Of a stretch of DNA of 64,000 nt, positions 4,321 through 49,264 are shown piece by piece (the stretch's first letter is position 1; each line of letters starts with the position of its first letter). Source of the DNA: an uncultured Bacteroidota bacterium (GTDB lineage: Bacteria > Bacteroidota > Bacteroidia > Chitinophagales > Chitinophagaceae); contig CAVWRD010000011.1 in NCBI GenBank assembly GCA_963757315.1, forward strand, positions 1,613,682 through 1,677,681. The letters are read 5' to 3'. The translations under genes and the position numbers were made by a program. The notes below the pieces were generated by a model that worked only from the letters and a program-made list of their open reading frames with translations, did no database searches and was not told the origin of the DNA.

Positions 4321-5766
4321 ATTTCCCAGATTTTTACTTAGAATATTTAATGTGATCACGAAAGAAGTACCGTTTCCTTCCTCACTGAACACTTCGATTT
4401 TTCCTTTATGATTTAATACAATATTTTGAGTATTGGTCATCCCTAATCCATTCCCGTTTGCCTTCGAAGTAAAATACGGATCAAAAATTTTAGTGATTGT
4501 TTCATCATCCATACCATTACCATTGTCGCGTATAATGATATTACACTGATCACCGACCCGATTAGTTTCAAGGGTTAATATTGCGTTTTCTCCAGACATA
4601 GCCTCAATAGCATTTACGATTACGTTTAGTAAGGCAATTTTCATTCGGGTCTTGTCAACATTCAACAAGATCCTTTCCGCTGAATATCTTTTATCAATTT
4701 TTACCTGCTTGAGGTGAGCACGGTCAATTGCTTCATGAAGTGACTGGTCCAGCAAATCGTTTACGGGTATTTCCTCATATTGCAGGTCGGTAAATTTAGT
4801 AGCGGACAGGAGTTCATTAATCAATTCATTGATCCTCCGGGAATTCCTCGATATAATTTCAAGAAACATTTTTTTATCTTCTCCCGCAAGACTGTCGTTA
4901 TCTAAATGACTTGCAGACAAATCGATGTTAGTGAGCGGATTTCGGATTTCATGTGCAATAACGCGGGCCACGCGGCCCATGCTGGTAAATCGTTCCATAC
5001 TTCTCAACTCCAATAATTCTTTATTCGCATTCGCGAGTTCAGAAATTCTCTTTTCAAGCTGGTCATGATAAGATTCTGCCTGTATAGTTGCCTTTTTCTT
5101 GGCCTGGCTTTCAATGTTAAAAGTGACAAGAGAATAGATTATGAGTAGGCCGGAAACAAGACCAGCGCCAATTATGATCCAAAAAACTATTTTGCCGTAA
5201 TACGAAACTCTTTGAGTTCTCTGAGAAAGTAATTTATTTTCATTTACTGTTATGGAATCCGAAAGCTGCTCAATGGAGTTAATGAGACTGCCATTTAACT
5301 GTTCTCTTTCGCGGATGGAATCGTTAATTTGAAAATGGTTCCTGTTTAATATGCTGAGTTCTTCATTCAGCATATTGTATTTTCTCACAATGATCTCATG
5401 CATCACTTCCAGTCTTTTCTTTTCTTCAGGATTGTCATTTACACTATTGGATAAAACCTGAAAAACAGAATCAACTAAGGTTTCGCTCTCTTTATAGTCA
5501 TTCAGGTAGGCAACCTGCTTCTTATGCATAAATTCATTCCAGCTTATTTCTGCATCTTTCAAATTGGAATTAAGGATGGCCAGTTTATTAATTACTTCCC
5601 TGGTATGACTAACCCATTTATTTTGTTTTCTAAGCTGAACAAATGAAGAGAGTGATAAGAAATAGCAAATGAGCAGTAAAATAAATGCTGCCAGATAACC
5701 GCTTCTGATCTTTTTAGGAAAATCAAATTTCATAATCATTATTGGCAAACAATAACAGGTCACCAA
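4312..5766 (-). CDS. sensor histidine kinase with CHASE3-like periplasmic domain (orphan; no response regulator adjacent)
   Basis: H-box HEIRNPL, N-box NVIVNAIEAM, G-boxes DNGNGM and GNGLGM. N-terminal WVSHTREV pattern typical of CHASE3. The true start is probably MKFDFPKK. Confidence 0.85.
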   Translation of the reverse strand: MVTCYCLPIMIMKFDFPKKIRSGYLAAFILLLICYFLSLSSFVQLRKQNKWVSHTREVINKLAILNSNLKDAEISWNEFMHKKQVAYLNDYKESETLVDSVFQVLSNSVNDNPEEKKRLEVMHEIIVRKYNMLNEELSILNRNHFQINDSIREREQLNGSLINSIEQLSDSITVNENKLLSQRTQRVSYYGKIVFWIIIGAGLVSGLLIIYSLVTFNIESQAKKKATIQAESYHDQLEKRISELANANKELLELRSMERFTSMGRVARVIAHEIRNPLTNIDLSASHLDNDSLAGEDKKMFLEIISRNSRRINELINELLSATKFTDLQYEEIPVNDLLDQSLHEAIDRAHLKQVKIDKRYSAERILLNVDKTRMKIALLNVIVNAIEAMSGENAILTLETNRVGDQCNIIIRDNGNGMDDETITKIFDPYFTSKANGNGLGMTNTQNIVLNHKGKIEVFSEEGNGTSFVITLNILSKNLGNLV

Positions 5767-13534: not shown

Positions 13535-14113
13535 TTATTTTAACAAATCACCTTTGTCGAAGCAAATCCTACATCTTGGTTCGTATAAGTCCTTGCTACC
13601 AATTAAAAATAGCGCGGCATTTCCTGTTTTTCTATAGGAATAGTTCGCAATATTCCCACATTGCATACATATGGCATGCAACTTGGTAATGTATTCTGCC
13701 TTGGATAGAAGCGCTGGAATTTGTCCGAATGGGTTTCCGAGATAATCCATATCAAGACCAGCCACGATAACGCGAGTGCCCTGCAATGCAAGCTGATCAC
13801 ACACATCTGGAAGAGCATCATCGAAGAACTGAGCTTCGTCTATGCCAACCACATCGACCGTTGAAACCTGCTCCAGTATTGCATTTGCGCCCGCGACAGG
13901 TATTGATTGGATGCTGTTTTCATCGTGGGACACGATATTTTCAACGTGAAACCTTTTGTCGGACTCTGGTTTGAAAATACCAACACGGAGGTTGGCAATT
14001 CGTGCCCTGCGTAGTCTCCTGATTAGTTCTTCTGTTTTTCCGGAGAACATAGATCCGCAAATCACTTCAATCCAACCACGTTTATTAAACTGAATATCGG
14101 GCTCTATAAACAT
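13535..14113 (-). CDS. tdk: thymidine kinase
   Basis: P-loop GSMFSGKT, DEAQFF, and C-terminal Cys pairs (CMQCG, CRIC). Confidence 0.92.
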   Translation of the reverse strand: MFIEPDIQFNKRGWIEVICGSMFSGKTEELIRRLRRARIANLRVGIFKPESDKRFHVENIVSHDENSIQSIPVAGANAILEQVSTVDVVGIDEAQFFDDALPDVCDQLALQGTRVIVAGLDMDYLGNPFGQIPALLSKAEYITKLHAICMQCGNIANYSYRKTGNAALFLIGSKDLYEPRCRICFDKGDLLK

Positions 14114-14180
14114 AGTTCGCAGGAATTTGGATAAATATTTGCATTAAATTTATAAAACATTTCATCTCCCACTATAAGTA

Positions 14181-14867
14181 ATGGAACGGTTGCAGCAACT
14201 CATCAGCAAGTTAAATGAACAATGCGAACAAAACGAAAGTGCGCTTCAAATGCTTGTTACCCTGAAACAGATAGAAGCAGAACTCACGCAAATTCATACA
14301 GTAACGATAACCGGAAGAAAAAGTCCGGGTGTTTCCGTCGTTATGCCATCTCTGAGTTTCTCTTATAAGATGAAAGAAGATTATGCTCAGAAAATGGAAA
14401 AAGTGGTTTCTTCGGAAAAAGAAGAAACGAATCTTCACACGCAAGAGACGATTGTAGTTCCAATCAGCCATCAAGCCTGGATGGGGGATCCAATGTTAGA
14501 GATTCCGACCTTATCCCATCAATCAGTTAACAAGGAAATAAATGATCTGATTGGCAGTAACAGCCCGTCTATCAACGAAAAGCTAAAAACCGGCAATTTC
14601 ACTGAATTGGGATCCACGTTAAAAGGATCTCCTGTAAAAGAATTGAGAAAAGCCATCGGTGTAAATGACAGGTTTTTATTTATCAATGAATTATTTCGTG
14701 GAGATGAGGCGATGTATGAAAGAAGCATCAAAACCATTAATAACTTTCGCATCTTGCCTGAAGCTGAATACTGGATGGAAAGAGAATTGAAGATTAAGAT
14801 CGGCTGGGACGATTCGAGAGATATTGTTCAACATTTTTATCAATTGGTAAGAAGACGGTTTTCCTGA
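14181..14867 (+). CDS. hypothetical protein
   Basis: 228-aa ORF with coding-like composition and no motif recognised. Confidence 0.5.
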   Translation: MERLQQLISKLNEQCEQNESALQMLVTLKQIEAELTQIHTVTITGRKSPGVSVVMPSLSFSYKMKEDYAQKMEKVVSSEKEETNLHTQETIVVPISHQAWMGDPMLEIPTLSHQSVNKEINDLIGSNSPSINEKLKTGNFTELGSTLKGSPVKELRKAIGVNDRFLFINELFRGDEAMYERSIKTINNFRILPEAEYWMERELKIKIGWDDSRDIVQHFYQLVRRRFS

Positions 14868-21394: not shown

Positions 21395-22280
21395 ATGAAA
21401 TCCAGCATGTCACCTTTTCGGGTAGTGGTTACAGGTGGCGATGGCCAGCTTGGAAATGAAATTGCAAAAATCGCAAGTGAATCCCAAGGTTTTCAATTTA
21501 CATTTCTATCGCGAAAAGAATTCCCACTTGAAAATTTTGATTTGATAACAGAATGGTTGAATCAAAATCCGGTAGACATCTTTATCCACTGTGCCGCGTA
21601 TACGGCGGTTGATAAAGCCGAATCCGAAAGAGAAAAAGTATTCAGAATAAATGCGGAAGCTCCGGGCCTCATCGCTTCTTCTATAGCCAGGACAAATTCC
21701 CGGCTCATTTATATTTCAACAGACTACGTATTTGATGGTACTTCTTCAAGCCCTCTGAAAGAGGATGCTTTAACTAGTCCCTTAAACATTTATGGCGCTT
21801 CAAAATTGGAGGGTGAACGACTTGTTAGCAGCAATAATCCCTTGACTCAAATAATTCGTACGTCCTGGCTCTATTCTGAGTTTGGAAATAATTTTGTGAA
21901 AACAATGCTTCGTCTAATGAAAGAAAGACATTCACTGAATATAGTGAATGATCAACAGGGGATCGCCCACTTATGCCGGAGATCTAGCCATAGCTATAAT
22001 GAAAATTTTAGAAACCGACCATTTCGAGCCAGGAATCTTTCATTTTAGTAATGAAGGTGAAGCAACCTGGTACGAATTTGCGCTGGAGATAAAAAAATTA
22101 ACCGGGATAAATTGTAACATTTTACCGATACCAACATCGGAATTTCCAACTCCTGCCAAGCGTCCGGCGTATTCCTTATTGGATAGTTCCAAAATAAAAA
22201 AAGAATACAACCTGATCATTCCTGATTGGCAAAACAGCCTTGCATATTGTCTTGAGGTATTAAAAAAAGGAAAAATGTAG
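21395..22280 (+). pseudogene. rfbD: dTDP-4-dehydrorhamnose reductase, split by a +1 frameshift at a G4 run (21958..21961)
   Basis: Two overlapping ORFs (21395..22048 and 21948..22280). VNDQQG in frame 1 continues as SPTYAGDLA in frame 2. A GGG run instead of GGGG restores VNDQQGSPTYAGDLA. YGASKLEGE is the active site. Confidence 0.8.
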
Positions 22281-22302: not shown

Positions 22303-22563
22303 TTATTTGGCAAATTTGGTTTGGTTTAATCGATCGGGTTTTAATCCGATAACCGGTGTATCGCTCGCGTTTTCATGGATGCCATAAAGCAGCTCTTCAT
22401 TTAAGTCGAGAACATCTTTTTGCAAACCATAGATTTCGTGAGTGAGTTTCTTCACTTTTTTTATACCTATGAGATAACCTATCGAAAAAATAAAAAGACC
22501 GGCAACACCAACATCCAGCATATTTAGCTGTATAGCCTTAAGCAAATCGATTACTGTTTCCAT
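22303..22563 (-). CDS. hypothetical small membrane protein
   Basis: 86 aa with one TM segment (VGVAGLFIFSIGYLIGI). Confidence 0.4.
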   Translation of the reverse strand: METVIDLLKAIQLNMLDVGVAGLFIFSIGYLIGIKKVKKLTHEIYGLQKDVLDLNEELLYGIHENASDTPVIGLKPDRLNQTKFAK

Positions 22564-23023: not shown

Positions 23024-23094
23024 TTGCCTGACCTGGATTCGAACCAAGACAAACAGAGTCAGAGTCTGTCGTACTACCGTTATACTATCAGGCA
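23024..23094 (-). tRNA. tRNA-Gln (anticodon CUG)
   Basis: Hand-folded cloverleaf: acceptor TGCCTGA/TCAGGCA, anticodon arm ACAGA-CTCTGAC-TCTGT, T-arm CTTGG-TTCGAAT-CCAGG. No encoded CCA. Confidence 0.88.
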
Positions 23095-23141: not shown

Positions 23142-23204
23142 ACTTAGGGAGCTGAATTTTACCCAAATAAAATATACAAACCCTCATCAGATGGGTATCA
23201 ATGT

Positions 23205-23810
23205 ATGAATAAAAAAAGCAGATTTTCGGATACGGAGCTTTTGGAGGCGATAAATGAAAAAGATTTGCTGGAACAGGCGATTTTACAGCTCTATCAGGAT
23301 CATTTAGAAGCAACAAAAGCTTTTATAATGACTAAAGGTGGTACGAAACAGGATGCCGATGATATCTTCCAGGAAACCATAGTTTCATTTATAGATTGCG
23401 TTCAAAAGAATAAATTCAGGCAGGAGTCGGGCATCAGGACTTTTTTGATTTCAATTTCCAAGAACCTTTGGTACAACGAAATTAGAAAAAGAGATAGAGC
23501 AGGACGCCGGGAAATAATTTTTGAAATGGACCGTGATCAACCAGAAGCAGCGGTCATTGAGACTATTCAATATCGGGAAATGAAAAAGGAATTAAATCAA
23601 CTACTTCAGGATTTGGGAGATTCATGCAGGAAAATTCTCGAATTGTTTTACTATGAGAATTTATCAATGAAAGAGATTGTTGATCATTTACATTACGAAA
23701 ATGAGCAGGTTGTTAGAAATAAAAAATATAAATGCCTCAGCCAGCTGACGGAAAAGATGAAGAACAATCCCTTGATAAAAGAAAAAATAACCGAACTGAT
23801 TTCCAGATAA
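23205..23810 (+). CDS. ECF-type RNA polymerase sigma-70 factor
   Basis: 201 aa. Region 2 (DADDIFQETIVSFI, WYNEIRKR) and region 4 HTH (ENLSMKEIVDHL). Confidence 0.9.
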   Translation: MNKKSRFSDTELLEAINEKDLLEQAILQLYQDHLEATKAFIMTKGGTKQDADDIFQETIVSFIDCVQKNKFRQESGIRTFLISISKNLWYNEIRKRDRAGRREIIFEMDRDQPEAAVIETIQYREMKKELNQLLQDLGDSCRKILELFYYENLSMKEIVDHLHYENEQVVRNKKYKCLSQLTEKMKNNPLIKEKITELISR

Positions 23811-23871
23811 TGGCGTCTCTGAAACCGTTTAGAAAGTTTTAGACAATGTCATTTTGTAATCCCGTTATCGA

Positions 23872-26655
23872 CTATGAAATTCGTCGGCTTTTCGCGACTT
23901 TTTTTCTCAAGATTAATAAAATGATACCGCTTCCCGTTATGAATGCAAGCCAAATCGGGGTTTGCTTTTTTGCATACAAGCTACATGGATTACCTGTAAG
24001 AACAATATGCGACCAGTAAGCCGGATCTCTCTTTATCGGATTATTCCTTATAAAATCCAGTTTGGCCTTTTGTAGTGCCTTTGATTTTGAATTTCCCGCT
24101 TTCAGATAACCATAGAACGACTTAAAAATCTCCGCTGTTGAATGATCATCAGCTTTCCAGAGCGTATTGATAGTGCTTGGGCAACCTGCATACAGGAAAG
24201 CACGCGCAAAACTCATTACCCCCTCATTCTTTACAAGTTCGCCTCTTCCGGTTTCACAGGCACTGATAACCATCATCTGGCAACTGTCCAGCCGGAGAGA
24301 GTAAATTTCATCCAAAAACAGAAAATCCTCCGATCGTATGCCTGTGATAGGGAAAAAAGCAATGTAAGAAGCAGACGGATTTTCCAGATCTGTAATCGCG
24401 TGGGTTGCCAGATGTACGATTGGATATAGATTCAGATTACTGATAAATTCTTTCTTTGTCGCCTGCCGATCTTCAAAACGTTTCCCGGTTAATTCTGATA
24501 TTTCATCTCTGGAATATGGCAATTTTTCAAGCCAGCCCATTCCTTCTGTCTTCCCATCAGCAGCCCTTTGCGAAAAAGGTGCAAATGAAAGCACGGGCTC
24601 TTGTAAAGAATGTCCATAAATACGTCCTTTATTTTCAATAAGAAATCTGGCAGAAAATTCGTAACTGATTGCATGTTTTTCAAGAATCAGGGTTCCCTTA
24701 TTGTCAGCTGGCAGAGACTCTATCGGAAGAAGAAAAAACAGGCCGTCGGGTATAATAATCCACTCCTCTTTTTCGCCTGCCAATCCAATGATTGGTTTCA
24801 TCAATTGTTCATAAATGCTTTCTTTCAATTCTAAATTATTTTTATGCCTTCCGCTTTCTGTATTCTGCAGGTTTTGTATCCAGGAATGTATATCACTCCG
24901 AATTTTCTCACCGCTACCGATTTCAACTTGTTGCAGAGATGCTTTTGTTAATACAAATACTTCTATTTTTCCAGGTAAATTACAAAAACTGATGAGTGCC
25001 TGATTAGCGCCAATAGCTTCTTTTAGATGTTCAATGGAAGGAAAATCATCCGAATATTTCAACTTATAAAAGCTTTTATCTCCCTCCATTTTTCTGCGTA
25101 GGGTTACTAACTGCGTTTCGTAAGCCGACTTTTCACTATTTATTTTTTGCAAAGTCAGATCATCCAATTCCTCATCCGCCCTGGAATTTAAACGTGCGAT
25201 ATTAAATTTTATATTTCGCTCCTGCCCCGCCAGGTCTTCACCAGACCTGTCAGATCTGAGAAAATTGCTTTCCCTGAGCTGAGAATTCATAATGGATGCC
25301 TTATTCTTCTCTGTGATTAAGAAAGCGGCTTCTTTGAATTCCGCTTTCGGGAATAATTTGTTTAATTCAAGACAGACAGTCAATGCATTCGTATATACTT
25401 CTCCGCTTTTTTGTTTCAACAGTATTTTAGCATCGTCCATTTCATAACTTTTTTCAATATAAGAAAGGAGTGAAATGGTTGATTGATAGGTATCAAAAGC
25501 AGACTTGAGGTCATCCGGATTGGATGTCTTTTTATATTCTATTTCCCAGGCAGTCGCTTTTTTAACAAGCACTTCAAAAAGTCTGTAATAGGCAAATGAT
25601 CCATTGAAGCTTACGGGATTCTTTCGGATATCACGACTTGTAAAATTTCCCGAAAAAATAATCAGTGATTTCTGCAGGTGGCTGAGTGCGGATTCCGGAC
25701 GCTTCAGAAAAATATCCAGGTCGCCTGAATAAAGTTCATTTACCCCATCGTCCAGGTCATTTGTGTGTAGTGCTTTTTTCATATCCTGAAACTGATGTAA
25801 CCAGACAGACGCGGAAAGAGTATCCCCCATGTCAAGGGCGGTTCTTGCCATTTCATTTAAAACCCCCGGTACCGCCGTAATTTTTACTTTTTTGAAAGAA
25901 GTCAAAGCTGACTGATATTGATGCAGACCCGCATATGCCCGACCCATATTCATATATAACGGATCCGGTAATAACTGATATTTCAGAATTTTAATGTAGA
26001 GCTTCAGTGCCTGTTCATATAAACCAAGCTTATAATAACAAGTTGCCATATTCAATTGTAAACTATATGCAAAAACATCAGCCGGATTTTTTGTTTCAAT
26101 CAAACGTAGAGCCTGCGTGAAATAATTTTTACTCTGAAGGTAATTTCCATTATCATAGTACATAACACCGAGAGTATTAAACAACCTTACACGGTCTTCG
26201 AAAGTACCTCCCTCATCAGTACTTTCTTCTGCACGCAAAAGAAAAAAACTTGCTGAATCAAAATTATTCAGATTATAATACCCTGAACCCGCCAGCACAT
26301 TCAAACTGAATTGTTCTGCTGGATTCTTTGAATATTTCATTGCATTCCGGTAAGATATTGTGGCCTTGTAATAATCTTTATACACGTCACTCATTATGCC
26401 CAGTTTATAATTGGCCTGGTAAAGAAGACTGTCCGTCAATCTGGACATTGGCAAACTACTTAACTCAGAAATGACTTTATTGAATCCTTCCATGCAAGCG
26501 CTATCCATTGCCGGGGTATTATGCGTGGAATAGAATAGATGGTCCGCTCGGTCAAATGCTGAAAGAATGGACTTTAAAGGCCGTCCTGGAGAATACTGTT
26601 TAAATGACAAGATTAACAGGAAAGAGAGGGTCACAAAAAAAGCTTTCCCGGACAT
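23872..26655 (-). CDS. TPR-repeat CHAT-domain (caspase-like, clan CD) protein with signal-like N-terminus and C-terminal TM anchor
   Basis: CHAT dyad motifs VHLATHA (His752) and VISACETG (Cys800, tgt at 24256..24258 minus). TLWKADD motif. TPR-like repeats in the N-terminal third. Terminal helix IWLAFITGSGIILLIL plus a KKVAKSRRIS tail. Confidence 0.88.
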   Translation of the reverse strand: MSGKAFFVTLSFLLILSFKQYSPGRPLKSILSAFDRADHLFYSTHNTPAMDSACMEGFNKVISELSSLPMSRLTDSLLYQANYKLGIMSDVYKDYYKATISYRNAMKYSKNPAEQFSLNVLAGSGYYNLNNFDSASFFLLRAEESTDEGGTFEDRVRLFNTLGVMYYDNGNYLQSKNYFTQALRLIETKNPADVFAYSLQLNMATCYYKLGLYEQALKLYIKILKYQLLPDPLYMNMGRAYAGLHQYQSALTSFKKVKITAVPGVLNEMARTALDMGDTLSASVWLHQFQDMKKALHTNDLDDGVNELYSGDLDIFLKRPESALSHLQKSLIIFSGNFTSRDIRKNPVSFNGSFAYYRLFEVLVKKATAWEIEYKKTSNPDDLKSAFDTYQSTISLLSYIEKSYEMDDAKILLKQKSGEVYTNALTVCLELNKLFPKAEFKEAAFLITEKNKASIMNSQLRESNFLRSDRSGEDLAGQERNIKFNIARLNSRADEELDDLTLQKINSEKSAYETQLVTLRRKMEGDKSFYKLKYSDDFPSIEHLKEAIGANQALISFCNLPGKIEVFVLTKASLQQVEIGSGEKIRSDIHSWIQNLQNTESGRHKNNLELKESIYEQLMKPIIGLAGEKEEWIIIPDGLFFLLPIESLPADNKGTLILEKHAISYEFSARFLIENKGRIYGHSLQEPVLSFAPFSQRAADGKTEGMGWLEKLPYSRDEISELTGKRFEDRQATKKEFISNLNLYPIVHLATHAITDLENPSASYIAFFPITGIRSEDFLFLDEIYSLRLDSCQMMVISACETGRGELVKNEGVMSFARAFLYAGCPSTINTLWKADDHSTAEIFKSFYGYLKAGNSKSKALQKAKLDFIRNNPIKRDPAYWSHIVLTGNPCSLYAKKQTPIWLAFITGSGIILLILRKKVAKSRRIS

Positions 26656-26721
26656 AAACAGATTTTAAGTAGCTCTGTTTTAACGTCCGGGAAAGCTCAA
26701 TATTGTTGGACTGAAAAGGGG

Positions 26722-27606
26722 TTAGTTATTATCCCTTACAATAATAATGAGTGGAGGTCTGGGTGAAGGACCTTTACTCAAAAGCAGGTTATCCAGTGTA
26801 TTTATAAGGTTGTTGGTAATTGAAGACAGCACACCAGACGGAATATCCGATCTATGGTTATAAAAGACTAACTGCAACTGTATCTTTTGATCCGCATAAT
26901 TACTAGCATCATTCAACCAATAATAGATAGTCGTATTCACGGTAGTGCCATTTAATGGAAGAAGACCAAACAAACTCTTTTTCATCGTTTGCTGCAAATC
27001 AATATTTCCGGTATGCTGATCTATTACAATGCCCTGGTTCTTTGCATAGTTATTATAATCAAACTGGCATCCTTTTCCCTGGTTTGTCAGACATGGTGAA
27101 GGCCAATTGGGATTAGCATTAAAATAGGGTTTTGCGGTATCGTTTGTTGTAAGCACGTAAACACTATCCATATACGCCGCACCCCCTACAATCAACTGGG
27201 ACATACAAGTATCAGTAGTTCCATTTTTCACAAATGCAACTGAATACCGCTGACCGGTTTCCGACTGGGTTAAATCGATTGCCCCAGTGTTTGGATTCAA
27301 ACTCAATCCACCAGGCCAGGATAAATAAGTACCCTGGATACCCTGATTATTTTGTTGAAACACATAATAGTCTCCGTTTGATTGGGGTTCGGGGTAAACG
27401 ATGGAGTCTCCATAATCTGGCGCAAAATTACATTCCTGGACCGGACTAACCGGATATGGAACCGGTGGTGGAACCGAGAGTGTCGTATCGTGCGGAATAC
27501 TTACAGTTGTATTTGGGCTGGAAGGATCGGCTGATTTCTTGCACGCTATTGCACAGAAAAATGTTATCAGCAGGATCAACGATCCTTTGTAAAGATTTTG
27601 TTTCAT
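26722..27606 (-). CDS. hypothetical lipoprotein
   Basis: Signal peptide with a lipobox-like FFCAIAC. Pro-rich linker. Internal repeat NPNTGAIDLTQS / DQHTGNIDLQQT. Confidence 0.6.
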   Translation of the reverse strand: MKQNLYKGSLILLITFFCAIACKKSADPSSPNTTVSIPHDTTLSVPPPVPYPVSPVQECNFAPDYGDSIVYPEPQSNGDYYVFQQNNQGIQGTYLSWPGGLSLNPNTGAIDLTQSETGQRYSVAFVKNGTTDTCMSQLIVGGAAYMDSVYVLTTNDTAKPYFNANPNWPSPCLTNQGKGCQFDYNNYAKNQGIVIDQHTGNIDLQQTMKKSLFGLLPLNGTTVNTTIYYWLNDASNYADQKIQLQLVFYNHRSDIPSGVLSSITNNLINTLDNLLLSKGPSPRPPLIIIVRDNN

Positions 27607-27754
27607 GGGTATCAGGGATCTGGTTTATGGAACACAAGATAATCGGAAAACCCGGCAGATGCAAGTGTTTCCGCGTAAAACTGGTCGAGAGACTTAGTAA
27701 AAAATACACGCAGATCCGCGTCCTATTCTGAATAAATTTCCCAATATGGGAAAT

Positions 27755-28798
27755 TTAAAACCGAGGGCATTGCACTTCAGTTCTTGTGCTCCCGTCTGTA
27801 GGTTTTTTAAAGATGTAGATCAGGGAGATTTCAAAACCACCCTGGCTTTGAGAAGCAACTTTAAACCCGGAAACATTTACGTCATAAGTCATACCTAAAT
27901 TAAAACTTCCATAGTCCATTCCAACATAAGGTATAATCGCGTCCGAAACATTATTTGCTCTGGCCCACGCACCAAAATAAATATTTACAACTTTATTTTC
28001 ATCTGTAGTGGCACTCAATTCCAAAGCGCCGCCGAACACAAGTTCACTTGCAGTAAGCTGCTTGTTATAAATAGCACTAACATACCATGTCTTACCCGTG
28101 CTCGCTGATGGGAAATAACCACCTCCATGAACCGTAAGACGTGTCGGCACTGTTATGTTATCCACTCCAAGAAAAGATTCCTTAGGTTGATTAATATGGT
28201 ACATAGCTACACCAAAATACACTTCATTGTTTCCATCGAGTGACCCATTGTACAACGCACCTGCGTTCATGTCAAAATAATTTGCTGTAACCACCTGAAG
28301 ATTTACGGGCTCTGTTGCAGATGGAAGCCAGGTTCCGTCAATTTGAAGACCATCCAGAAAATGAAGTCTCGGACCGTCAAGCGTCCGGTTGGCATAAGTG
28401 CCCTGAAACCCTATGCCTATAGTATGTAATCCATTTTCGTCAATGGTTTTATGATAAGCAGTTGATAATGCAAAATAATTGCTGGTCAATATACCGTTTG
28501 CTGTTTTATCGGTCATTGCCATCATTCCAACTCCCCAGCGATCTCCTTCGCGAAGACTATTTTGAAGTATAGGAAGATCTATAGAAATTGTAGAAGTGAC
28601 ATAAGCCTGATTAACCGTAGGCCATTGATTTCTGTAGTTTCCCGCCACGCGAAGATCTCCGTTAAATTTTCCCGTTAAAGCTGGATTTAGTGTAAGTGGT
28701 GAGGCGAAAAACTGAGAAAAATGAGGATCCTGCGCGGAGACCACGTTCGTTATTAAAACTTGTAAAATGAAAAAATGAATTATCCTTTTCATCATCAA
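27755..28798 (-). CDS. PorP/SprF-family type IX secretion outer-membrane protein
   Basis: Signal peptide followed by the family-typical QDPHFSQFFASPLTLNPALTG. 347 aa, beta-barrel-like composition. Starts 11 nt after a type-B CTD cargo gene. Confidence 0.85.
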   Translation of the reverse strand: MMMKRIIHFFILQVLITNVVSAQDPHFSQFFASPLTLNPALTGKFNGDLRVAGNYRNQWPTVNQAYVTSTISIDLPILQNSLREGDRWGVGMMAMTDKTANGILTSNYFALSTAYHKTIDENGLHTIGIGFQGTYANRTLDGPRLHFLDGLQIDGTWLPSATEPVNLQVVTANYFDMNAGALYNGSLDGNNEVYFGVAMYHINQPKESFLGVDNITVPTRLTVHGGGYFPSASTGKTWYVSAIYNKQLTASELVFGGALELSATTDENKVVNIYFGAWARANNVSDAIIPYVGMDYGSFNLGMTYDVNVSGFKVASQSQGGFEISLIYIFKKPTDGSTRTEVQCPRF

Positions 28799-28809
28799 TT
28801 CTATTGCGC

Positions 28810-31800
28810 TTATCTTACTAATTCAACGGTTCCTTTTAAAACAAAATTTTCTCCAGTAAAACAAATCATTTCAGTGACGTATACATATGTGTCTGAGGGT
28901 TGCGGCATTCCGTTCAGGTTACCATCCCAACCATATTTTTTATCATTCGGTGGAAAATCAGTTCTTGAATACAGGAGCTGCCCCCACCTTGAATAGACCT
29001 GGAATGATTTTACCATTTTTACTCCGCTGCCCGTAGGATAGAAGTAATCGTTGTTCCCATCATTATTCGGGCTGAACGCATTCGCCATATATACTCCACT
29101 TTGTAAACACAATAACTTAATGGTTACTGATGCGGATGAAACACAACCCGTAGCAGTTTTAACAGTAACAGTGTAAGTAGTAGGTGCCAAAGGTGTGCTG
29201 ACTGGCATTGCACAGTCCGTACAACTTAAATAAAGAGGTGGTGTCCAATCCCACGACACAACATCTGCACTTACATTCGGATCAAGCTGAACGTCAGAAC
29301 CTGCTAACACTGGATCGGGCGTTGGTATGCTTACGGCCGGCAACGAGTCAACGGTGACCTTAATGGTTGCTGTATCCAGAAAACATTTGTAGCTGTCTTC
29401 TCCAATGACTGTATAATTCGTAGTAGAAACAGGTCGGGCAATAACGCTATCTCCTTTGGTTGTATTCAAACTACTAGCGGGCGACCAATCATATGTAAAA
29501 GCACCGCTGGCCTGAAGTATCGCAAGTCCTCCTATACAAATTGTTGTATCCGGTGAGTGAAGCATGGGGAAGGGACCAATCACATGCACAGAATCATACG
29601 CCATCGCAGTACACCCAACAGGTGATGTCACCTGGAAAGCGGTGACAAAATCGCCAGGGGTTACATAGTTAAATGTTGGATTCAAAATATTGGAAGTATC
29701 GGTCGAGACACCGGTACCAAAGTCCCAATGATATGTAAGCGGATAACCCAAAGTATCTGCGACAAAACTTACAACATGCGGACCATAAGAAATGGAACCT
29801 ATACCACATAGTGTAACGGGTGGACCCAAAGCTGCAAACAAAGTATCCATTAGTATTTGATGGTCAGATTTGTAAGACATCTGACATCCGGTGGAATCTG
29901 TCAGAATGAGTGCCGGTGTAAATAAACCCGGCAATATATAAGTATGTACAGCTATGGAATCCTGAGTAGTTAATACAGTTCCATCTCCAAAATCCCATGT
30001 ATAAGATCCAATATAACTTGCTGTAGCATGCAGGGTGTCAGCTGCCGGAACACAGGCCTGATCCAGAGTCGAATAAAGTTTGGCAAACGGTCCCTTTACT
30101 GTAATAGTATCATAAGATATTACCGAAATGCCATTCGCTCCGTAACCCGTTAGAGACACGATATAAGTACCTGGTATATCATATTCGTATTTCGGAGTAA
30201 TCTTATTATCTGCCGTTCCCTTACCATCACCAAAATCCCAATGAAGTCCAATTGTATTTACAGGAACCGCAGTAAAATTTACAAACAAGGGTGGGCAACT
30301 GGAATTATTATAGTAATAGGATGAATCGGTAAAGGGCGCGGATATGGTTTGTATCTGTAAAGGCTGAGCCAATGTATCAATACAGGCACCTGCCATAGTT
30401 GGATAAGCAATAAGTGTCATCGTATCGTTACCAACATTCGGAAAAGTTACTGTAATCGAATCGGGATTTGTAAACGTTGCGCCACTACCCGAAATCCGCC
30501 ATAAATATGTAACTCCTGTATTTTTTACCGACGTATTGTAAAACGTAATAGGAAAACCAGGAGTAATTGCTATGGGCTTCCAATAAAAATTTGCCTTAGC
30601 TCCATATATCAATACCTGTGTAACTACGAGTTTTGCTGTGGCCTTACATCCATTGGAATCTGTTACTGTTAATTGTGGATTGTATGTTCCAGGCAGCGCA
30701 TAAAGATGCTGAACCGTATCACCTGTTAGATTTGTAACAGAATTTCCATCACCGAAATTCCACAACCAGGAAATAATTGGAACTCCATTAACTGGTTGAG
30801 AAGAATCTGAAAATATCACCGGCGCGTGATAACATAGCTGATTTTCGTCGCCAAATTTTGCAACCGGGCCAATGATATGGATTGGTATATAATTACTGGT
30901 GTCATAACATCCAAAAAAAGCAGACTTTAAAATAACACGAATACTGTCCTCACCAGCTACCAGTCCTGATACAGTTCCGGAAAAAGAAGTCTTAATAGCA
31001 GTATTACCAGTCGGGTTAAACGTTGTGCCGTCGTTATATTGCCACTTATAAATATTATAGTATGTAGTTGATCCTGTCACTTTACGCTGATAATTAGTAT
31101 CAAGTGTGTTTATGTTAATTGGAAGCGTGGAGCTTGCACAAATGGTATCTTTCGTTGAACTCAATACGGGTTTTTGATTTGCCAATACATAAACTGGAAC
31201 TGGTCCTGTAGTTTGTATACAGGATCCATAAGTAACAATCACGGAAGCAGAATAGACCCCTCCTTTTGGATAATGATGATTTTTGGTGGGTATGTAAACC
31301 AAATCCGTATCGTTCGGCGATCCGTCTCCATAACTCCATACATATTGTGATCCTCCCGAAGGAACAACGGTAAGGGCAGCACTCAACCTGTCACTATCAC
31401 AATTATTTACAACAGTTAGTTTAGGTATTGGTGTTGTTTTAACGAAGCGGGTAATCGTCGACGTGTCACTTTTACAACCCGGACTTGAAGCAATCAGCGT
31501 CATATTGTACGATCCTGAATTCTGATACAGATGCGTATGGTAAATGTTATTATTTATGTCTGATTTGCCGTCGCCGTACAACCATTTGAATTGTGCAGCG
31601 CTGTCATCGAGATTATAAAAAGTTTCCAATTGATTGGTCGTACAGGGAAGAGAATCCTGTGCGGTAAAAATCGCGTGTGGTTTTGGATAAACGATGATCG
31701 TGTCTGATGGGAATGCACCGCCCGAACATCCGTGAATGGTTGTAAAACTCAGGTTAATAATATATGTGCCTGGTTTGGAAAATACATGAATAGGACTGGC

Positions 31801-33297
31801 GCTGGTATCAGTAGTCCCATCTCCGAATGACCAGAAATAGGTAGCTAAGGTATCAGCAGATTTGGCAGTAAACGTGGCTTGAACATCAGCGCAATAAACA
31901 GCAGACGGGATTAAAATGGTGTCTGCATGAATTGTCGCAGTTGGCAACGCAGTATTAAAAGTTTCTGATATTGTTGATGAACATCCATTTGAGTTTACAA
32001 TTGTAAGCGTTGGTGAAAACGAGTTGTTTGTCAGGTACGTAAAACTTGGATTCTTTAAATCCGAAGTATCGCCTGGGTTCCCGGTAAAATTCCAATGCCA
32101 GTTTGTTGCACCCAGACTGGTATCCAAAAAATTAACAGTCATTGGTGAGGAACAACTTGTTCCCTTATTGAGTATAAAAGGACTGATATTGGGAGCAGCC
32201 AGGACATTAATAATCTTAGTAACCGAATCCGGACAAGTTCCAAAGTTTTCATACATCGTAACCGGATATGCACCCGCCGTCGCATAGCTGTGTCCGTAAG
32301 TAATTCCTATTCCACTTCCACCATCGCCAAATGTCCATATGGGAACCCCGGTAGGTGCGGGTGTACTTTTATTTATAAAAATAATTGTGTTGCCCGGGCA
32401 GTATGCGGAATTTGTAGTGAAATCAGCACTAAAATTTGCGGCATTGATATAAGCGGGTTTTGTAACGGTAGATGAACATCCATAAGTATTCGATACAACC
32501 AGACTAATATCATAATTCCCTTTTGCAGCATAAAGATGTGTCGGGTTTGTAAGAGTACTTGAATCGTTGTCGCCAAATGACCAGGAATAACTTAAAGCAC
32601 CTGCGCCAGTTGAAGTGTTATGAAAAAGAACAGGCTGATTTAAACTACAAATAGCAGTAGTGTCGACAAAAAATGAGGGACTAAGAGCAGGATATACGGT
32701 AACCATATCCTGAATCTTATAAGTATTGATACAACCAAAACTATTAGTTGCCGTAAGACTAACCGAATAAGTTCCGGGAAACTGGTAGATATTAGAAACA
32801 GAACCAACCGTGGTGCTTTGTGAATTACCATCACCAAAATTCCAAATAGCTCCGGTAATGGTACCATCACCTGCGCTTAGTGAACTTGAAAAATCAACTA
32901 ACAATGGTGAACATCCTACGGTATGATCCGCTGAAAAATTTATTGCAGGTTTTTTGTAGACGGTTATATCCTTGGAAATTGTCGCGGTCTTTCCACCATC
33001 ACTTATCGTCAACGTTACTGTGTAGATTTGTCCGACAAAGTAGGTAGCAGAAACGGGATTATTTTTAACGTTGGTTGTGATACCATTTCCATTACCAAAA
33101 ATCCAGGTGTAAGTAGAAGTGGCGCTTGTTCCAGTAGATGTATTTACAAAACTCACCGTTAATGGCGAACAGCCCGAATTAACACTTGGTGTAAAGTCAG
33201 CCGTCAGTTGCGCCATCACCGGATCGATACCTGCCAACAAAAAAATAATTGCCAGCAGATAGCCTGATCTTCTACCTGAATTATTCCTCAGGGGCAT
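28810..33297 (-). CDS. large PKD-repeat surface protein with T9SS type-B (gliding-motility-associated) C-terminal sorting domain
   Basis: About 14 repeats carrying WxFGDG-type PKD motifs (AIWNFGDGNS, YFWSFGDGTT, LHWDFGDGKG ...). C-terminal NAFSPNNDGNNDYFYP motif of type-B CTDs. N-terminal signal peptide. Confidence 0.88.
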   Translation of the reverse strand: MPLRNNSGRRSGYLLAIIFLLAGIDPVMAQLTADFTPSVNSGCSPLTVSFVNTSTGTSATSTYTWIFGNGNGITTNVKNNPVSATYFVGQIYTVTLTISDGGKTATISKDITVYKKPAINFSADHTVGCSPLLVDFSSSLSAGDGTITGAIWNFGDGNSQSTTVGSVSNIYQFPGTYSVSLTATNSFGCINTYKIQDMVTVYPALSPSFFVDTTAICSLNQPVLFHNTSTGAGALSYSWSFGDNDSSTLTNPTHLYAAKGNYDISLVVSNTYGCSSTVTKPAYINAANFSADFTTNSAYCPGNTIIFINKSTPAPTGVPIWTFGDGGSGIGITYGHSYATAGAYPVTMYENFGTCPDSVTKIINVLAAPNISPFILNKGTSCSSPMTVNFLDTSLGATNWHWNFTGNPGDTSDLKNPSFTYLTNNSFSPTLTIVNSNGCSSTISETFNTALPTATIHADTILIPSAVYCADVQATFTAKSADTLATYFWSFGDGTTDTSASPIHVFSKPGTYIINLSFTTIHGCSGGAFPSDTIIVYPKPHAIFTAQDSLPCTTNQLETFYNLDDSAAQFKWLYGDGKSDINNNIYHTHLYQNSGSYNMTLIASSPGCKSDTSTITRFVKTTPIPKLTVVNNCDSDRLSAALTVVPSGGSQYVWSYGDGSPNDTDLVYIPTKNHHYPKGGVYSASVIVTYGSCIQTTGPVPVYVLANQKPVLSSTKDTICASSTLPININTLDTNYQRKVTGSTTYYNIYKWQYNDGTTFNPTGNTAIKTSFSGTVSGLVAGEDSIRVILKSAFFGCYDTSNYIPIHIIGPVAKFGDENQLCYHAPVIFSDSSQPVNGVPIISWLWNFGDGNSVTNLTGDTVQHLYALPGTYNPQLTVTDSNGCKATAKLVVTQVLIYGAKANFYWKPIAITPGFPITFYNTSVKNTGVTYLWRISGSGATFTNPDSITVTFPNVGNDTMTLIAYPTMAGACIDTLAQPLQIQTISAPFTDSSYYYNNSSCPPLFVNFTAVPVNTIGLHWDFGDGKGTADNKITPKYEYDIPGTYIVSLTGYGANGISVISYDTITVKGPFAKLYSTLDQACVPAADTLHATASYIGSYTWDFGDGTVLTTQDSIAVHTYILPGLFTPALILTDSTGCQMSYKSDHQILMDTLFAALGPPVTLCGIGSISYGPHVVSFVADTLGYPLTYHWDFGTGVSTDTSNILNPTFNYVTPGDFVTAFQVTSPVGCTAMAYDSVHVIGPFPMLHSPDTTICIGGLAILQASGAFTYDWSPASSLNTTKGDSVIARPVSTTNYTVIGEDSYKCFLDTATIKVTVDSLPAVSIPTPDPVLAGSDVQLDPNVSADVVSWDWTPPLYLSCTDCAMPVSTPLAPTTYTVTVKTATGCVSSASVTIKLLCLQSGVYMANAFSPNNDGNNDYFYPTGSGVKMVKSFQVYSRWGQLLYSRTDFPPNDKKYGWDGNLNGMPQPSDTYVYVTEMICFTGENFVLKGTVELVR

Positions 33298-36272: not shown

Positions 36273-39200
36273 ATGAATAGATTTTTTACATTGATATTAA
36301 TCCTGATTGCGGGAACTGCCGTTGCTCAGCCCTACAATAACGAGTGGATTGACTACAGTAAGACATACTATAAATTCAAGGTCACTTCGGATGGTCTTTA
36401 CAGAATCCCTGCTTCCGTACTGTCATCCGCAGGACTTTCTTCTGTAGATGCAAAAGATTTTCAACTTTTCCGTAATGGAGTAGAGGTACCGTTATATACT
36501 TCAGTTAGTAGTGGCCCTCTGTCTCCAACAGATTATATCGAATTCTGGGGACAAATGAACGATGGGAAAGCTGATAAACCTCTTTACAGAAATCCGGCAT
36601 ACCAGCACACCACCAAATGGAGTCTTCAATCAGATACATCTGTTTATTTTCTGACGGTCAATACTACAGGTGCTACTTTTCATTATAATACGCTTAACAA
36701 CGACACAACTACTAATGTGTTGCCCGTTGAACCTTACTTCATGTACACAACTGGATCTTATTTCCATTCCCAAATTAACCCGGGACTCGCATACGTTCTT
36801 GAGCAATACATTTATTCTTCTTCTTACGATATAGGTGAATTCTGGAGTTCAGATTTTTCATCACCAGGGGCACCTGTATCTGATAACCAGAATAATCTTT
36901 ATATATATAATAGCGGACCTTCCGCCAATTTGAAATTTGGTGCTGCAGGCTGTTCAGACACCCTTCGAACAATCCAGGTTAAAGTAAATAATACTCTTTT
37001 TAAGGATACTACTCTGAACAATTTCGATGACATTGTTAGTAACGTTACAGTGCCACTCTCCTCCTTAAACACCAGCTCTTCTAATTTTCAATTTATAAAT
37101 AATTCGCAGGCAATCACCTATTCAGACCGATTGGTTGTATCATTCTATGAACTTACATATCCCAGGCAATTTAATTTTAACGGACAACCTAATTTTCCGT
37201 TTCAGTTGCCGGCTAATGTCGGTGGATATTATTTAAAGATCACCAATTTTAATCAGGGCAGTTCCATTCCTGTACTTTATGACCAGACAACAGGTCAGCG
37301 CTTCGTCGCAATTTCAAACGCCGGAACCCTGACCTTTGCTCTTCCGGGATCTGCATCATCGAGAAACCTGGTGTTGGTCAGTGAGGATCCATCGAACATT
37401 AACACTATTAATTCTTTGACAAAAAAGAATTTCATATCATATGCAGATCCGTTAAATCAGGGCAATTATCTTATAGTCACAAATTCGGTACTTTATACAG
37501 GCACACACGGGAATAATCCCATCGCAGATTATGTGGGATATCGTTCTTCTACTGCAGGTGGTGCTTTTAATGCACAATCGATGGACATCGCAGAGCTCAC
37601 CGATCAGTTTGCGTTCGGAATTCAGAAACACCCGCTTGCAATAAAGAACTTCATAAACTATGCGAGAAATAATTATGGGCAAAAGCCAGCATTTATATTC
37701 CTGATAGGTCGCGGAATGACTTATATGGAATATCGGCAGAATCAGGGGAATCCTGCTACCGAACAGCTCAACCTTGTACCTACTTTCGGATATCCGGCGT
37801 CTGATGTGATGCTTGCGTCGGGGAATGGATCCGGAAGTGTTAACCTGATTCCCATTGGCCGTTTAGGAGCCGTTAAAGGTTCCGAAGTGGAAGACTATCT
37901 TGAAAAAATTATAGCATATGAACAGGTGCAACAAACAGCCGCAAATACTTTTGCAGGAAGAGGATGGCGTAAGAATATCATGCATGTTACCGGTGCCACA
38001 GATCCGTTCCTTGAAAGTGTGCTGTGTAATTATATGGTGTACTATCAGCAGATAATTTCCGATACCCTGTTTGGCGCAAATGTAATTCGGTTCTGCAGTT
38101 CTACAATTGACCAGAATAATCAGGCTTCCAATGCTCAGATTCCCCAGCTATTTGATAATGGTTTGGGTATTCTTGATTATTTTGGACACTCCTCCTCTTC
38201 TACATTAGGTTTTAATCTGGACGATCCAAGTATATTCACTAATCAATCAAAATATCCGGTTATGTACGTGAACGGATGTTATGCAGGAAATTATTACACA
38301 TTTGACCCAGGTCGTCTGACAAATGGAAAAACATTATCTGAGAACTATGTACTCATAAAAAATAAAGGTGCCATTGCATACGTGGCGAGTTCTCATTTTG
38401 GTGTAGTAAATTATTTGAATCTGTTATTGAATTATATGTACACACTGATGGGAAACAGTGATTATGGCAAAAGCATCGGAACGATTGAGTCTGATGCGGG
38501 AAGAAATTTGATAACACAACTTCCCACGGATTTTATTGCCCGGTGTCAAACGGAAGAAATGAATATTCACGGAGATCCGTCATTGACAGTTAGTGACGAG
38601 AAATTACCCGATTACGATGTTGAAGCTTCAGGTGTATTAGTGACTCCAACGTTTATTTCGGTTGCAGATCGCAGTTTTAACCTGAGCGCAACTTTTTATA
38701 ATCTGGGAAAAGCTGTTTCCGATTCGATTACAATACTTATTACCAGAAGATATCCGAATGGCAGCACTACTACAATGCTGAAGAAAAGAATTCCAGGTAT
38801 AAGATTTTCTGATTCCCTGCAAATCCAGGTACCCATAGTTGCAACGACAGATGAGGGCCAAAACTATATTACCGTAACTGTTAACTCAGACAACGATGTC
38901 CCCGAAATAACAACGGCTAACAATTCCGTAACGGTTCCGATATTCATTTATCAGGATGAGCTCACACCGATTTACCCTTATAATTACGCGATTATTACTA
39001 CACCGGTTCAAAAACTATATGCATCTACAGCTAATCCATTTGCGCCTATTACGCAATATATAATGGAAATAGATACAACAGAGGCCTTCAATTCTCCCAG
39101 AATGGTATCAAAAAATATCACGTCGGTAGGCGGAGTGTTTGAATTTGATCCCGGCATAAGATATGCGGATAGCACAGTCTATTATTGGAGAACTTCCATT

Positions 39201-49135: not shown

Positions 49136-49254
49136 GCTTTAGGCTTTAGGCTTTAAGCTTTAGGCTTTAGGCTTTAGGCCTTAGGCTTTAGGCTTTAGGC
49201 TTTAGGCTTTAGGCTTTAGGCTTTAGGCTTTAGGCTTTAGGCTTTAGGCTTTAG
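49136..49254. repeat. tandem heptanucleotide array, (GCTTTAG) x17 with two single-base variants (copy 3 gctttaa, copy 7 gccttag)
   Basis: Counted copy by copy across 119 bp. All reading frames carry stops. Followed by gcccg and a T8 run. Confidence 0.97.
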
Positions 49255-49264
49255 GCCCGTTTTT

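Follow-up and report, generated by a model that had tools for sequence, protein, structure and literature searches.

Probable lineage-specific loss of a candidate anti-sigma gene beside an ECF sigma factor and a predicted periplasmic TPR-CHAT protease in a Chitinophagaceae bacterium

The sigma factors of extracytoplasmic function (ECF) form the most numerous class of regulators in Bacteroidota, and their input mechanisms are for the most part unknown. In this study, a stretch of 64,000 nt from contig CAVWRD010000011.1 of an uncultured Chitinophagaceae bacterium (the window) was analyzed, in which an ECF sigma gene converges on a gene for a protein with tetratricopeptide repeats (TPR) and a CHAT caspase-like protease domain. 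In Myxococcus xanthus, DdvA is a single-pass anti-sigma factor with a periplasmic TPR-CHAT part of about 900 residues, and it has been proposed that the CHAT domain cuts the juxtamembrane linker in trans, after which RseP acts (PMC11506125). DdvS/DdvA controls a CBASS/CRISPR island, and DdvA-like proteins have been reported only in Myxococcota and one Comamonas (PMC11506125). In the searchable literature, Myxococcus DdvA is the only periplasmic TPR-CHAT protein tied to sigma control that has been studied, and the proteolytic step there is unproven. The original prediction for our locus, made from the sequence alone, had regarded the type III-E Craspase (Cas7-11 and Csx29, with the substrates Csx30/Csx31 and RpoE) as the sole studied pairing of a TPR-CHAT protein with an ECF sigma factor; DdvA/DdvS is closer, being periplasmic and fused to an anti-sigma factor (PMC11506125). 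It had also proposed a CRISPR-independent envelope module for protease-to-sigma signaling, with a sigma factor that natively lacks an anti-sigma factor. Our results indicate that the link is real, conserved and independent of CRISPR, but that the missing anti-sigma gene is almost certainly a recent, derived loss in one lineage and no design feature.

The conservation of the locus was assessed in two directions. The CHAT-centred survey, with one genome per species, comprised 76 loci, mostly from Chitinophagaceae metagenome-assembled genomes labelled Puia, and also took in Flavihumibacter solisilvae, Niastella, Flavitalea, Puia sp. P3, and one Catalimonadaceae genome. The sigma-centred survey was a metagenome scan with sigma-specific peptide patterns. 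In about 150 related loci (numbered with the prefix L), the sigma gene is directly followed by a gene for a putative single-pass anti-sigma factor of about 250 aa, and this operon converges on an operon coding for a lipoprotein and the TPR-CHAT protein. The order of lipoprotein, CHAT, and convergent sigma gene was found by tblastn in essentially every locus with enough flank, at CHAT identities from 95% down to 28%, and the outer flanks of the four genes vary while the module persists, down to Catalimonadaceae. All 43 sigma-centred loci that extend 2.5 kb or more downstream have a convergent CHAT gene, and the anti-sigma gene is missing only rarely; the sigma-CHAT link is therefore real, as the original prediction supposed and as both survey directions agree, and the absence of the anti-sigma gene is exceptional. 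The sigma, anti-sigma, lipoprotein, and TPR-CHAT genes appear, from their conserved arrangement, to be an undescribed four-gene envelope module of Chitinophagaceae-type Bacteroidota.

In the relatives, the CHAT and sigma genes are about 1 kb apart, and this interval contains an open reading frame (ORF) of 250 aa that starts 4-14 nt past the sigma stop codon or overlaps it. The product has a conserved helical cytoplasmic N-terminus of about 85 aa, a single transmembrane helix, and a TPR domain in the periplasm; its motif L.t.RG, with a conservation of 90% or higher, lies some 25 residues outside the membrane. Weak, sub-threshold matches to anti-sigma NCBIfam models were obtained for 7 of 14 members (best 2.9e-6), and profile and PDB searches gave TPR matches for the periplasmic part only, the N-terminus again reaching sub-threshold anti-sigma matches. 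The N-terminal 80 residues contain no conserved Cys or His, so they lack CHCC zinc ligands, in contrast to the zinc-binding CHCC anti-sigma domain of DdvA. We read this ORF as the cognate anti-sigma factor. It is present in 62 of 63 sigma-containing genome loci (the exception is L011). Of the 61 metagenome loci that extend 900 nt or more downstream of the sigma gene, 59 contain it, the exceptions being L079, which belongs to the lineage of the window, and L153. In L153, the first ~36 anti-sigma codons are fused to a DksA/TraR-like zinc-finger sequence (4064-4324) and followed by high-GC DNA, and this contig is probably an assembly chimera. Since more than 95% of orthologous loci carry the gene, precisely where the window has a gap of 61 nt, its absence from the window points to a lineage-specific deletion, and the notion of a sigma factor natively without an anti-sigma factor does not hold. 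The original prediction had named a cognate anti-sigma factor found elsewhere as evidence against it; one does exist, in the modified form that it accompanies the sigma subgroup in the relatives.

The window itself has no anti-sigma ORF 3' of the sigma gene, as predicted, and tblastn with the anti-sigma proteins of the family found nothing in the whole 64 kb. Compared with L001, L010, and L161, it lacks a contiguous segment of about 1.04 kb that begins at the sigma stop codon and reaches as far as the 5' arm of a GTCGACG...CGTCGAC element, which itself overlaps the stop codon of CHAT. The missing sequence corresponds to the anti-sigma gene, the sigma-dependent promoters, and a repeat-rich non-coding region. 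The window and six related loci from at least four lineages are without the anti-sigma gene, the non-coding region, and the promoter motif; these relatives are L077, L078, and L079 (95% identity, independent samples), L159 (sigma 91%), L011 (81%), and, probably, L160 (82%). The gene is retained in L161 (81%) and L080 (79%). The arrangement of the window is not an artefact, because the independent assemblies L077, L078, L079, and L159 have the same one. The junctions between sigma and CHAT differ among these loci, with gaps of 61, 69, and 30 nt, an overlap of 74 nt in L011, and an extended sigma gene in L160; those of L011 and L159 are larger than that of the window and different from it. In L011, the deletion changed the C-terminus of CHAT, and the CHAT protein is more divergent. 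In the sigma and PorP trees the loci lacking the anti-sigma gene form one clade, which suggests a single deletion event, while the differing junctions and a recombinant lipoprotein-CHAT segment (see below) weigh the other way. The spacer left between sigma and CHAT in the window showed no significant structure on folding (z=-0.04), and a terminator-like hairpin is located at 23945-23965, within the 3' end of CHAT.

The loss of the gene coincides with the loss of a promoter. In the relatives, 3-4 nt separate the end of the sequence GGTTACA-N17-TACTAAT from the sigma ATG, which implies that the sigma mRNA would be leaderless or nearly so. A position weight matrix (PWM; 32 nt, 28 bits) built from the sites upstream of sigma was applied to 148 loci (1.92 Mb) with a threshold of at least 15 bits. 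The matches were almost confined to the module, at four positions. Of 142 loci, 136 had a match upstream of sigma (median 31 bits). Of 117 loci, 87 had one just past the anti-sigma stop codon on the sigma strand, with as many as three copies in tandem. Upstream of the lipoprotein gene, matches occurred in 37 of the 55 loci whose sigma identity was below 62% and in none of the 40 at 62% or more, and 25 loci had a match divergent from the lipoprotein gene. The first class is partly circular, as the PWM was built from it, and the other three are independent. A shuffled 64-kb sequence gave no match above 15 bits, and among loci outside the sample L161 scored 35 and 31 bits, with no match in L159 and L160. 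The motif was found upstream of sigma in 137 of 138 loci containing the anti-sigma gene and was absent in 7 of 7 lacking it. At the homologous position, the site of the window scores 1.7 bits, with ATATACA instead of GGTTACA in the -35 element and TAT instead of TAC in the -10 element, the latter change being common to the window and L159; nothing in the 64 kb of the window exceeds 8.3 bits. ECF sigma factors are known for autoregulation from a group-specific bipartite promoter, and the window has no such promoter. Judged by the motif, anti-sigma loss is perfectly associated with the loss of positive autoregulation. In a distant clade, two back-to-back copies of the motif lie upstream of the lipoprotein gene (L022 8688-8832; L027 8713-8867; L052 8771-8925), one of which faces a variable divergent gene, for example one for a 227-aa secreted protein in L027; this points to a larger local sigma regulon in that clade.

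Natural loss of an anti-sigma factor is known from mucA mutants of Pseudomonas aeruginosa. As in that case, the anti-sigma gene was lost in a lineage and the sigma gene was kept. The present case differs in that a clean deletion is fixed in a clade of several species-level lineages and is accompanied by a decayed positive-feedback promoter, a decay that would limit runaway activation.

The sigma gene of the window is intact, and its identity as an ECF sigma factor, already given in the original prediction, was confirmed by matches to Sigma70_r2 (E=6e-10, aa 29-98), Sigma70_ECF (E=3.5e-6, model over aa 10-174), and TIGR02937 (E=2e-20), with a weak signal for region 4 at aa 129-163. This domain architecture places it among the ECF (group IV) sigma-70 factors. 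Every subgroup-invariant residue is retained, including LFYYENLSMKE and YENEQVVRNKKYKC. A co-transcribed cognate anti-sigma factor, typical of ECF sigma factors although not universal, is lacking in the window. An exact-sequence look-up of the sigma protein returned no match, and the ECF reclassification paper says nothing in its main text of an association with CHAT.

The convergent ORF of 927 aa, whose stop codon is exactly 61 nt from that of sigma, codes for a CHAT protease as foreseen. The CHAT domain (PF12770, clan CD) was matched with E=1.8e-47 over profile positions 5-289 of 289, TPR repeats were also matched, and His752 (VHLATHA) and Cys800 (VISACETG), the dyad conserved in CHAT proteases, are invariant in an alignment of 16 sequences (44-83% identity). 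The hydropathy scan showed two hydrophobic segments only, at aa 2-18 and aa 900-916, and the latter is followed by a tail of 11 residues containing 6 K/R, in line with the positive-inside rule; this pattern predicts that most of the protein is periplasmic, with a C-terminal anchor in the inner membrane, in agreement with the original prediction. This predicted topology is kept in the homologues: the N-terminal segment is common to the family, the homologue of L073 has a canonical signal-peptidase site (AWA/QP), and the C-terminal helix with its basic tail is kept across the family. The sequence of the tail itself is variable, so direct binding of sigma by the tail is unlikely. The helix starts about 10 residues past the CHAT domain, and the protease would thus be held near the membrane.

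An AlphaFold2 model of the TPR-CHAT protein (pLDDT 79, pTM 0.69) was used for the fold search recommended with the original prediction. The top PDB matches in Foldseek were Csx29 of Craspase (8d9h_E, 1e-13), DdvA (1e-12), and separase, within a range of 1e-13 to 1e-11. The DdvA entries 8rw5 and 8rot were matched with E~1e-12 and probability 1.0, so the protein shares the separase/craspase-type fold of this periplasmic TPR-CHAT protein; global TM-scores against DdvA were low (0.25-0.5), as expected for flexible multi-domain proteins. In a sequence-based PDB search, DdvA (8rot_B) was the only solved CHAT match.

The lipoprotein gene adjoins CHAT upstream in essentially all loci, including L073. 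Its product has no Pfam or NCBIfam match, all 444 homologues are annotated as 'hypothetical', and structure prediction from a 20-sequence alignment was unusable (pLDDT 44). A terminator-like hairpin lies between the PorP gene and the lipoprotein gene, which suggests that lipoprotein and CHAT constitute a transcription unit of their own, without the ECF motif; a conserved sequence, GGAAACAC..TTTTCCGATTATCTTG, is located upstream of the lipoprotein gene.

The relatives contain, between the anti-sigma and CHAT genes, an interval of 51-1338 nt (median 368) that is A-rich and G-poor on the sigma strand. It is packed with AUCC and UGAAAA(A)CC-type repeats, in some genomes as tandem units of about 100 nt; it is preceded by 1-3 copies of the sigma promoter motif and closed by the GTCGACG...CGTCGAC hairpin. 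Repeat density peaks in this interval and nowhere else in the loci, and is at background level throughout the window. The repeats together with the upstream sigma promoters suggest a candidate sigma-dependent non-coding RNA. The interval had no match in Rfam at either the gathering or the E-value threshold, so the candidate would be without an Rfam family. The positions of these and the other features are listed in Table 1.

Table 1. Positions of the features in the window and, for the non-coding region, in related loci.
Feature	Position	Strand	Basis
Decayed remnant of the sigma autoregulatory promoter, AATATACAAACCCTCATCAGATGGGTATCAAT	23171..23202	+	Positional homology to the GGTTACA-N17-TACTAAT site
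ECF (group IV) sigma factor, 201 aa, intact	23205..23810	+	Pfam and NCBIfam matches
Deletion scar, 61-nt spacer in place of ~1 kb, keeping only part of the terminal hairpin element	23811..23871	.	Alignments with L001, L010, L161
TPR-CHAT protein, 927 aa: N-terminal signal/anchor, TPR/helical scaffold, CHAT caspase-like domain, C-terminal transmembrane anchor, basic tail	23872..26655	-	Pfam, hydropathy
C-terminal transmembrane helix, aa 900-916, then RKKVAKSRRIS tail	23908..23958	-	Hydropathy 2.21
CHAT domain, aa 612-889 (His752 codon 24400-24402, Cys800 codon 24256-24258)	23989..24822	-	Pfam coordinates, codons checked
N-terminal hydrophobic segment, aa 2-18, SGKAFFVTLSFLLILSF, export signal or signal-anchor	26602..26652	-	Hydropathy scan
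Lipoprotein, 294 aa, lipobox FCAIAC/KK	26722..27606	-	Encoded immediately upstream of CHAT
Intergenic region with terminator-like hairpin (27721-27708) after PorP/SprF and clade-conserved promoter-like element	27607..27754	-	Terminator scan
PorP/SprF protein	27755-28798	-	Upstream of lipoprotein gene
PKD-repeat type IX secretion system (T9SS) cargo, 1495 aa, type-B sorting domain	28810-33297	-	Upstream of PorP/SprF
Repeat-rich non-coding region (relatives only)	L001 12815-13055; L037 12800-13560; L057 12700-13780; L161 6370-6630		

The remaining genes are still constrained in the absence of the anti-sigma gene. Between the window and L077, both lacking it, the ratio of nonsynonymous to synonymous divergence (dN/dS) was 0.073 for sigma, 0.095 for CHAT, 0.017 for the lipoprotein, and 0.035 for PorP, at a synonymous divergence (dS) of 0.25-0.40, with 0.25-0.31 for the first three genes. 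L159 and L011 also retain both dyad motifs, and the ORFs are intact in all lineages without the anti-sigma gene. These low ratios and intact dyads argue that sigma, CHAT, and lipoprotein are functional genes under strong purifying selection after the loss, and the protease pair must then have a role independent of the anti-sigma factor. In addition, synonymous divergence is a mosaic. Against L159, dS was 0.79 for sigma and saturated for CHAT and lipoprotein; against L161, it was 0.80 for CHAT and 0.67 for the lipoprotein and saturated for sigma. Likewise, the sigma and PorP trees place the window with L159 and L011, which lack the anti-sigma gene, whereas lipoprotein and CHAT place it with L161, which contains it. 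The lipoprotein-CHAT segment of the window lineage (23872-27606) therefore looks like a recombinant patch akin to a lineage containing the anti-sigma gene, and the right-hand end of the patch would be at the deletion scar. In L063 (NZ_CP192583.1, complete genome of the cultured Puia sp. P3), matches to the sigma homologue around 13790-14390 fall in two frames and its product is truncated. CHAT, too, is matched in fragments, and decay of the module in this genome is possible.

DdvS/DdvA is the closest known system, and by architecture the present family is best described as a split version of it. In both, an ECF sigma factor is paired with a periplasmic TPR-CHAT protein of the separase/craspase type, with a His-Cys dyad, at the inner membrane; the sigma operon is autoregulated, and the proposed logic leads from a CHAT cut through intramembrane proteolysis to sigma release. 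However, DdvA is one fused chain, whereas here an anti-sigma factor of about 250 aa, with a small periplasmic TPR domain of its own, and a TPR-CHAT protein of 927 aa are encoded in convergent operons; the TPR-CHAT protein of the window has no cytoplasmic N-terminal domain, and the anti-sigma factor of the relatives is a separate protein. Unlike DdvA, the TPR-CHAT protein has its own export signal, a C-terminal anchor, and a dedicated lipoprotein partner. No CBASS/CRISPR regulon is found near the module, the host belongs to the Bacteroidota, and the window is without any anti-sigma factor.

The similarity to Craspase comprises the TPR-CHAT fold and the genetic linkage of a CHAT protease to an ECF sigma factor. 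Craspase, however, acts in the cytoplasm under the guidance of RNA, and the sigma inhibitor that it cleaves is soluble, while the protease described here is predicted to be extracytoplasmic and membrane-anchored, and the sigma inhibitor of the relatives would be a classical membrane anti-sigma factor. The window contains no CRISPR array and no cas gene of the size of Cas7-11, its large ORFs being a PKD/T9SS cargo, a C25 peptidase, and RpoB; Cas7-11, an array, and Csx30/Csx31 were likewise not found in the related loci. The sigma-CHAT adjacency is thus independent of CRISPR, as the original prediction had it.

Systems of regulated intramembrane proteolysis, such as RseA-DegS-RseP of E. coli, RsiW-PrsW-RasP of B. 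subtilis, and Prc acting on FecR-like anti-sigma factors, also have a single-pass anti-sigma factor co-transcribed with an autoregulated ECF sigma factor and a periplasmic protease proposed for the first cut. The non-coding region beside the operon recalls the small RNAs (sRNAs) that depend on sigma-E. The candidate site-1 protease here would be a caspase-like CHAT protein of clan CD, as opposed to a serine or metallo-protease. Moreover, unlike DegS, PrsW, and Prc, CHAT is always encoded beside the sigma/anti-sigma operon.

The reading that we favor, and to which we give an even chance, is that the window carries a derived, uncoupled copy of a conserved module in which CHAT cleaves the anti-sigma factor. 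In the intact module, the sigma and anti-sigma genes would be driven by sigma's own promoter. The anti-sigma factor, with its single transmembrane helix and its TPR domain in the periplasm, is predicted to bind sigma through its cytoplasmic N-terminus, and the 1-3 further promoter copies would fire into the A-rich, G-poor, repeat-rich non-coding region. The convergent operon would supply the lipoprotein and the inner-membrane-anchored periplasmic TPR-CHAT protease. The TPR scaffold and the lipoprotein may be sensing parts of the membrane-proximal CHAT domain, which, as site-1 protease, would cut a periplasmic or juxtamembrane segment of the anti-sigma factor. This cut would license intramembrane proteolysis and release sigma, a two-polypeptide version of the DdvA proposal. 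In the window lineage, the ~1-kb deletion almost certainly removed the anti-sigma gene and the non-coding region, and the autoregulatory promoter decayed, which would leave a sigma factor that is neither sequestered nor self-amplifying and is presumably produced at a fixed level from another promoter. Lipoprotein and CHAT would be expressed from their own housekeeping-type promoter. Judged from the genes, the sigma factor of the window is rather likely to be uncoupled or constitutive. The role of CHAT as site-1 protease of the anti-sigma factor, drawn by analogy, falls a little short of an even chance.

Several findings favor cleavage in trans. Nature has fused the two partners in Myxococcus, the genes are linked in every informative locus in both survey directions, and the structure of CHAT resembles Csx29, DdvA, and separase. 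Both partners are predicted to have an inner-membrane anchor and a working part on the periplasmic side, CHAT being about 10 residues from the membrane, and the anti-sigma factor has a conserved R-G about 25 residues outside its helix. Other findings weigh against the favored reading. The anti-sigma assignment is based on position, topology, and sub-threshold profile matches, without a solved or high-confidence fold, and cleavage by CHAT would be an extension to this family of what is only proposed even for DdvA. CHAT and the lipoprotein are strongly constrained, with the dyad intact, in every lineage lacking the anti-sigma gene, so that cleavage of the anti-sigma factor cannot be their sole job. 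The sigma promoter upstream of lipoprotein-CHAT in the distant clade is what would be expected of an output gene. It is also possible that a non-cognate regulator of the sigma factor is encoded outside the 64 kb.

The most serious alternative, although we consider it unlikely, is that lipoprotein and CHAT form a periplasmic processing or quality-control protease within the sigma regulon, that the anti-sigma factor senses alone or via unlinked proteases, and that adjacency reflects co-regulation. Its place would be like that of DegP and sRNAs, which are members of the sigma-E regulon. The distant-clade promoters (37 of 55 loci, often with a second divergent copy) agree with such a role, as do the neighboring putative sigma-dependent non-coding RNA and the strong purifying selection on CHAT and lipoprotein past the loss of the anti-sigma gene, the segment having even been replaced through recombination in the window lineage. 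However, none of the 40 loci with sigma identity of at least 62% has an ECF promoter upstream of lipoprotein-CHAT, yet the linkage is found in all; a protease held so close to the membrane would be an odd design for general periplasmic quality control, and the fusion seen in DdvA speaks for a direct functional contact of the anti-sigma factor with TPR-CHAT. The two roles of CHAT, as site-1 protease and as output, are not exclusive. FecA-type transducers are input and output at once.

A defence function, in which the module would sense phage attack in the periplasm and turn on anti-phage genes, is suggested by DdvS/DdvA, the closest characterised architecture, with its control of a CBASS/CRISPR island. 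It is quite improbable for the present family, as none of the four proteins (sigma, CHAT, lipoprotein, anti-sigma) had a PADLOC match, the flanks code for rhamnose biosynthesis, T9SS cargo and PorP, tyrosyl-tRNA synthetase, and other housekeeping functions, the promoter motif marks the module alone within 10 kb, and the module occupies a stable chromosomal position across many genera.

The original prediction envisaged a CRISPR-free analogue of Craspase, with a sigma subgroup natively lacking an anti-sigma factor and controlled by the TPR-CHAT tail or by cleavage of a Csx30-like inhibitor. The gap in the window, the conserved adjacency, and the Craspase-like fold are in accordance with it. The comparative data have largely refuted it, and we now hold it to be very improbable: a cognate anti-sigma gene occupies exactly the deleted position in the great majority of related loci, the cytoplasmic tail is short (about 11 residues) and variable, the catalytic domain would be on the opposite side of the membrane from sigma, and no Csx30/Csx31-like ORF lies between or beside the genes. 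Fortuitous adjacency, or a decaying locus whose sigma and CHAT genes are becoming pseudogenes, could account for the combined loss of anti-sigma gene, promoter, and non-coding region, for the altered and divergent CHAT of L011, and for the apparent frameshift in the sigma gene of L063, but this least probable explanation is already contradicted by the complete linkage in both survey directions, by dN/dS values of 0.07-0.10 for sigma and CHAT over a dS of ~0.25-0.3 since the loss, and by intact ORFs and dyads in every lineage lacking the anti-sigma gene.

Taken to its full extent, the favored reading makes the intact family an undescribed envelope system, in which a lipoprotein-assisted, membrane-tethered, caspase-like TPR-CHAT protein would be the trans site-1 protease of a TPR-bearing anti-sigma factor, coupled to a sigma-dependent non-coding RNA; the clade of the window would be a natural anti-sigma knock-out in which the promoter was killed and the protease kept for a second function. 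We put forward this whole combination tentatively, as something short of likely. If true, a split counterpart of DdvA, and a caspase-type site-1 protease from outside Myxococcota, would be on record for the first time. The family is widespread in Chitinophagaceae and reaches Cytophagales. Because the parts are split into separate genes, the idea of trans-cleavage is open to direct test, and cultured hosts are available in Flavihumibacter, Niastella, Flavitalea, and Puia. The sharply defined promoter motif is usable as a reporter, and the lineages naturally lacking the anti-sigma gene can serve for comparison. For annotation, the lesson is that an "orphan" sigma gene beside a CHAT gene can be a deletion scar and not a new regulatory principle.

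The rest of the window is made up of housekeeping genes, including those for rhamnose biosynthesis, tyrS, rpoB, and thrA. The PKD-repeat cargo followed by its PorP/SprF partner is a typical T9SS cargo/PorP pair. A link of the module to type IX secretion was considered and ruled out, since the pair accompanies the module only in close relatives (CHAT identity of at least 57%) and the terminator-like hairpin separates the two.

On the other side of the module, a tRNA gene (23024-23094) and an ORF for an 86-aa single-transmembrane protein without a family match (22303-22563) are located between the rhamnose genes and sigma, and the small ORF has remained a neighbor of sigma both in the close clade and in L026 and L068. 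The rhamnose gene rfbD/rmlD (dTDP-4-dehydrorhamnose reductase; 21395-22280) is split into overlapping ORFs of 217 and 110 aa in the window and is a single gene of 294 aa in L077, L159, and L011; the copy in the window is frameshifted, being either a pseudogene or a sequencing error. Farther along, a 1687-aa protein (36273-41336) contains Peptidase_C25 (gingipain/PorU-like, also of clan CD), CARDB, and FlgD_ig-like domains and is flanked by ORFs of 381 and 516 aa without a Pfam match. A perfect 7-nt tandem repeat (GCTTTAG x17) occupies the intergenic positions 49136-49256, and adjoining it a small Lys/Ala-rich ORF on the minus strand (48440-48805) contains coding repeats of 15/18 nt at 48523-48800.

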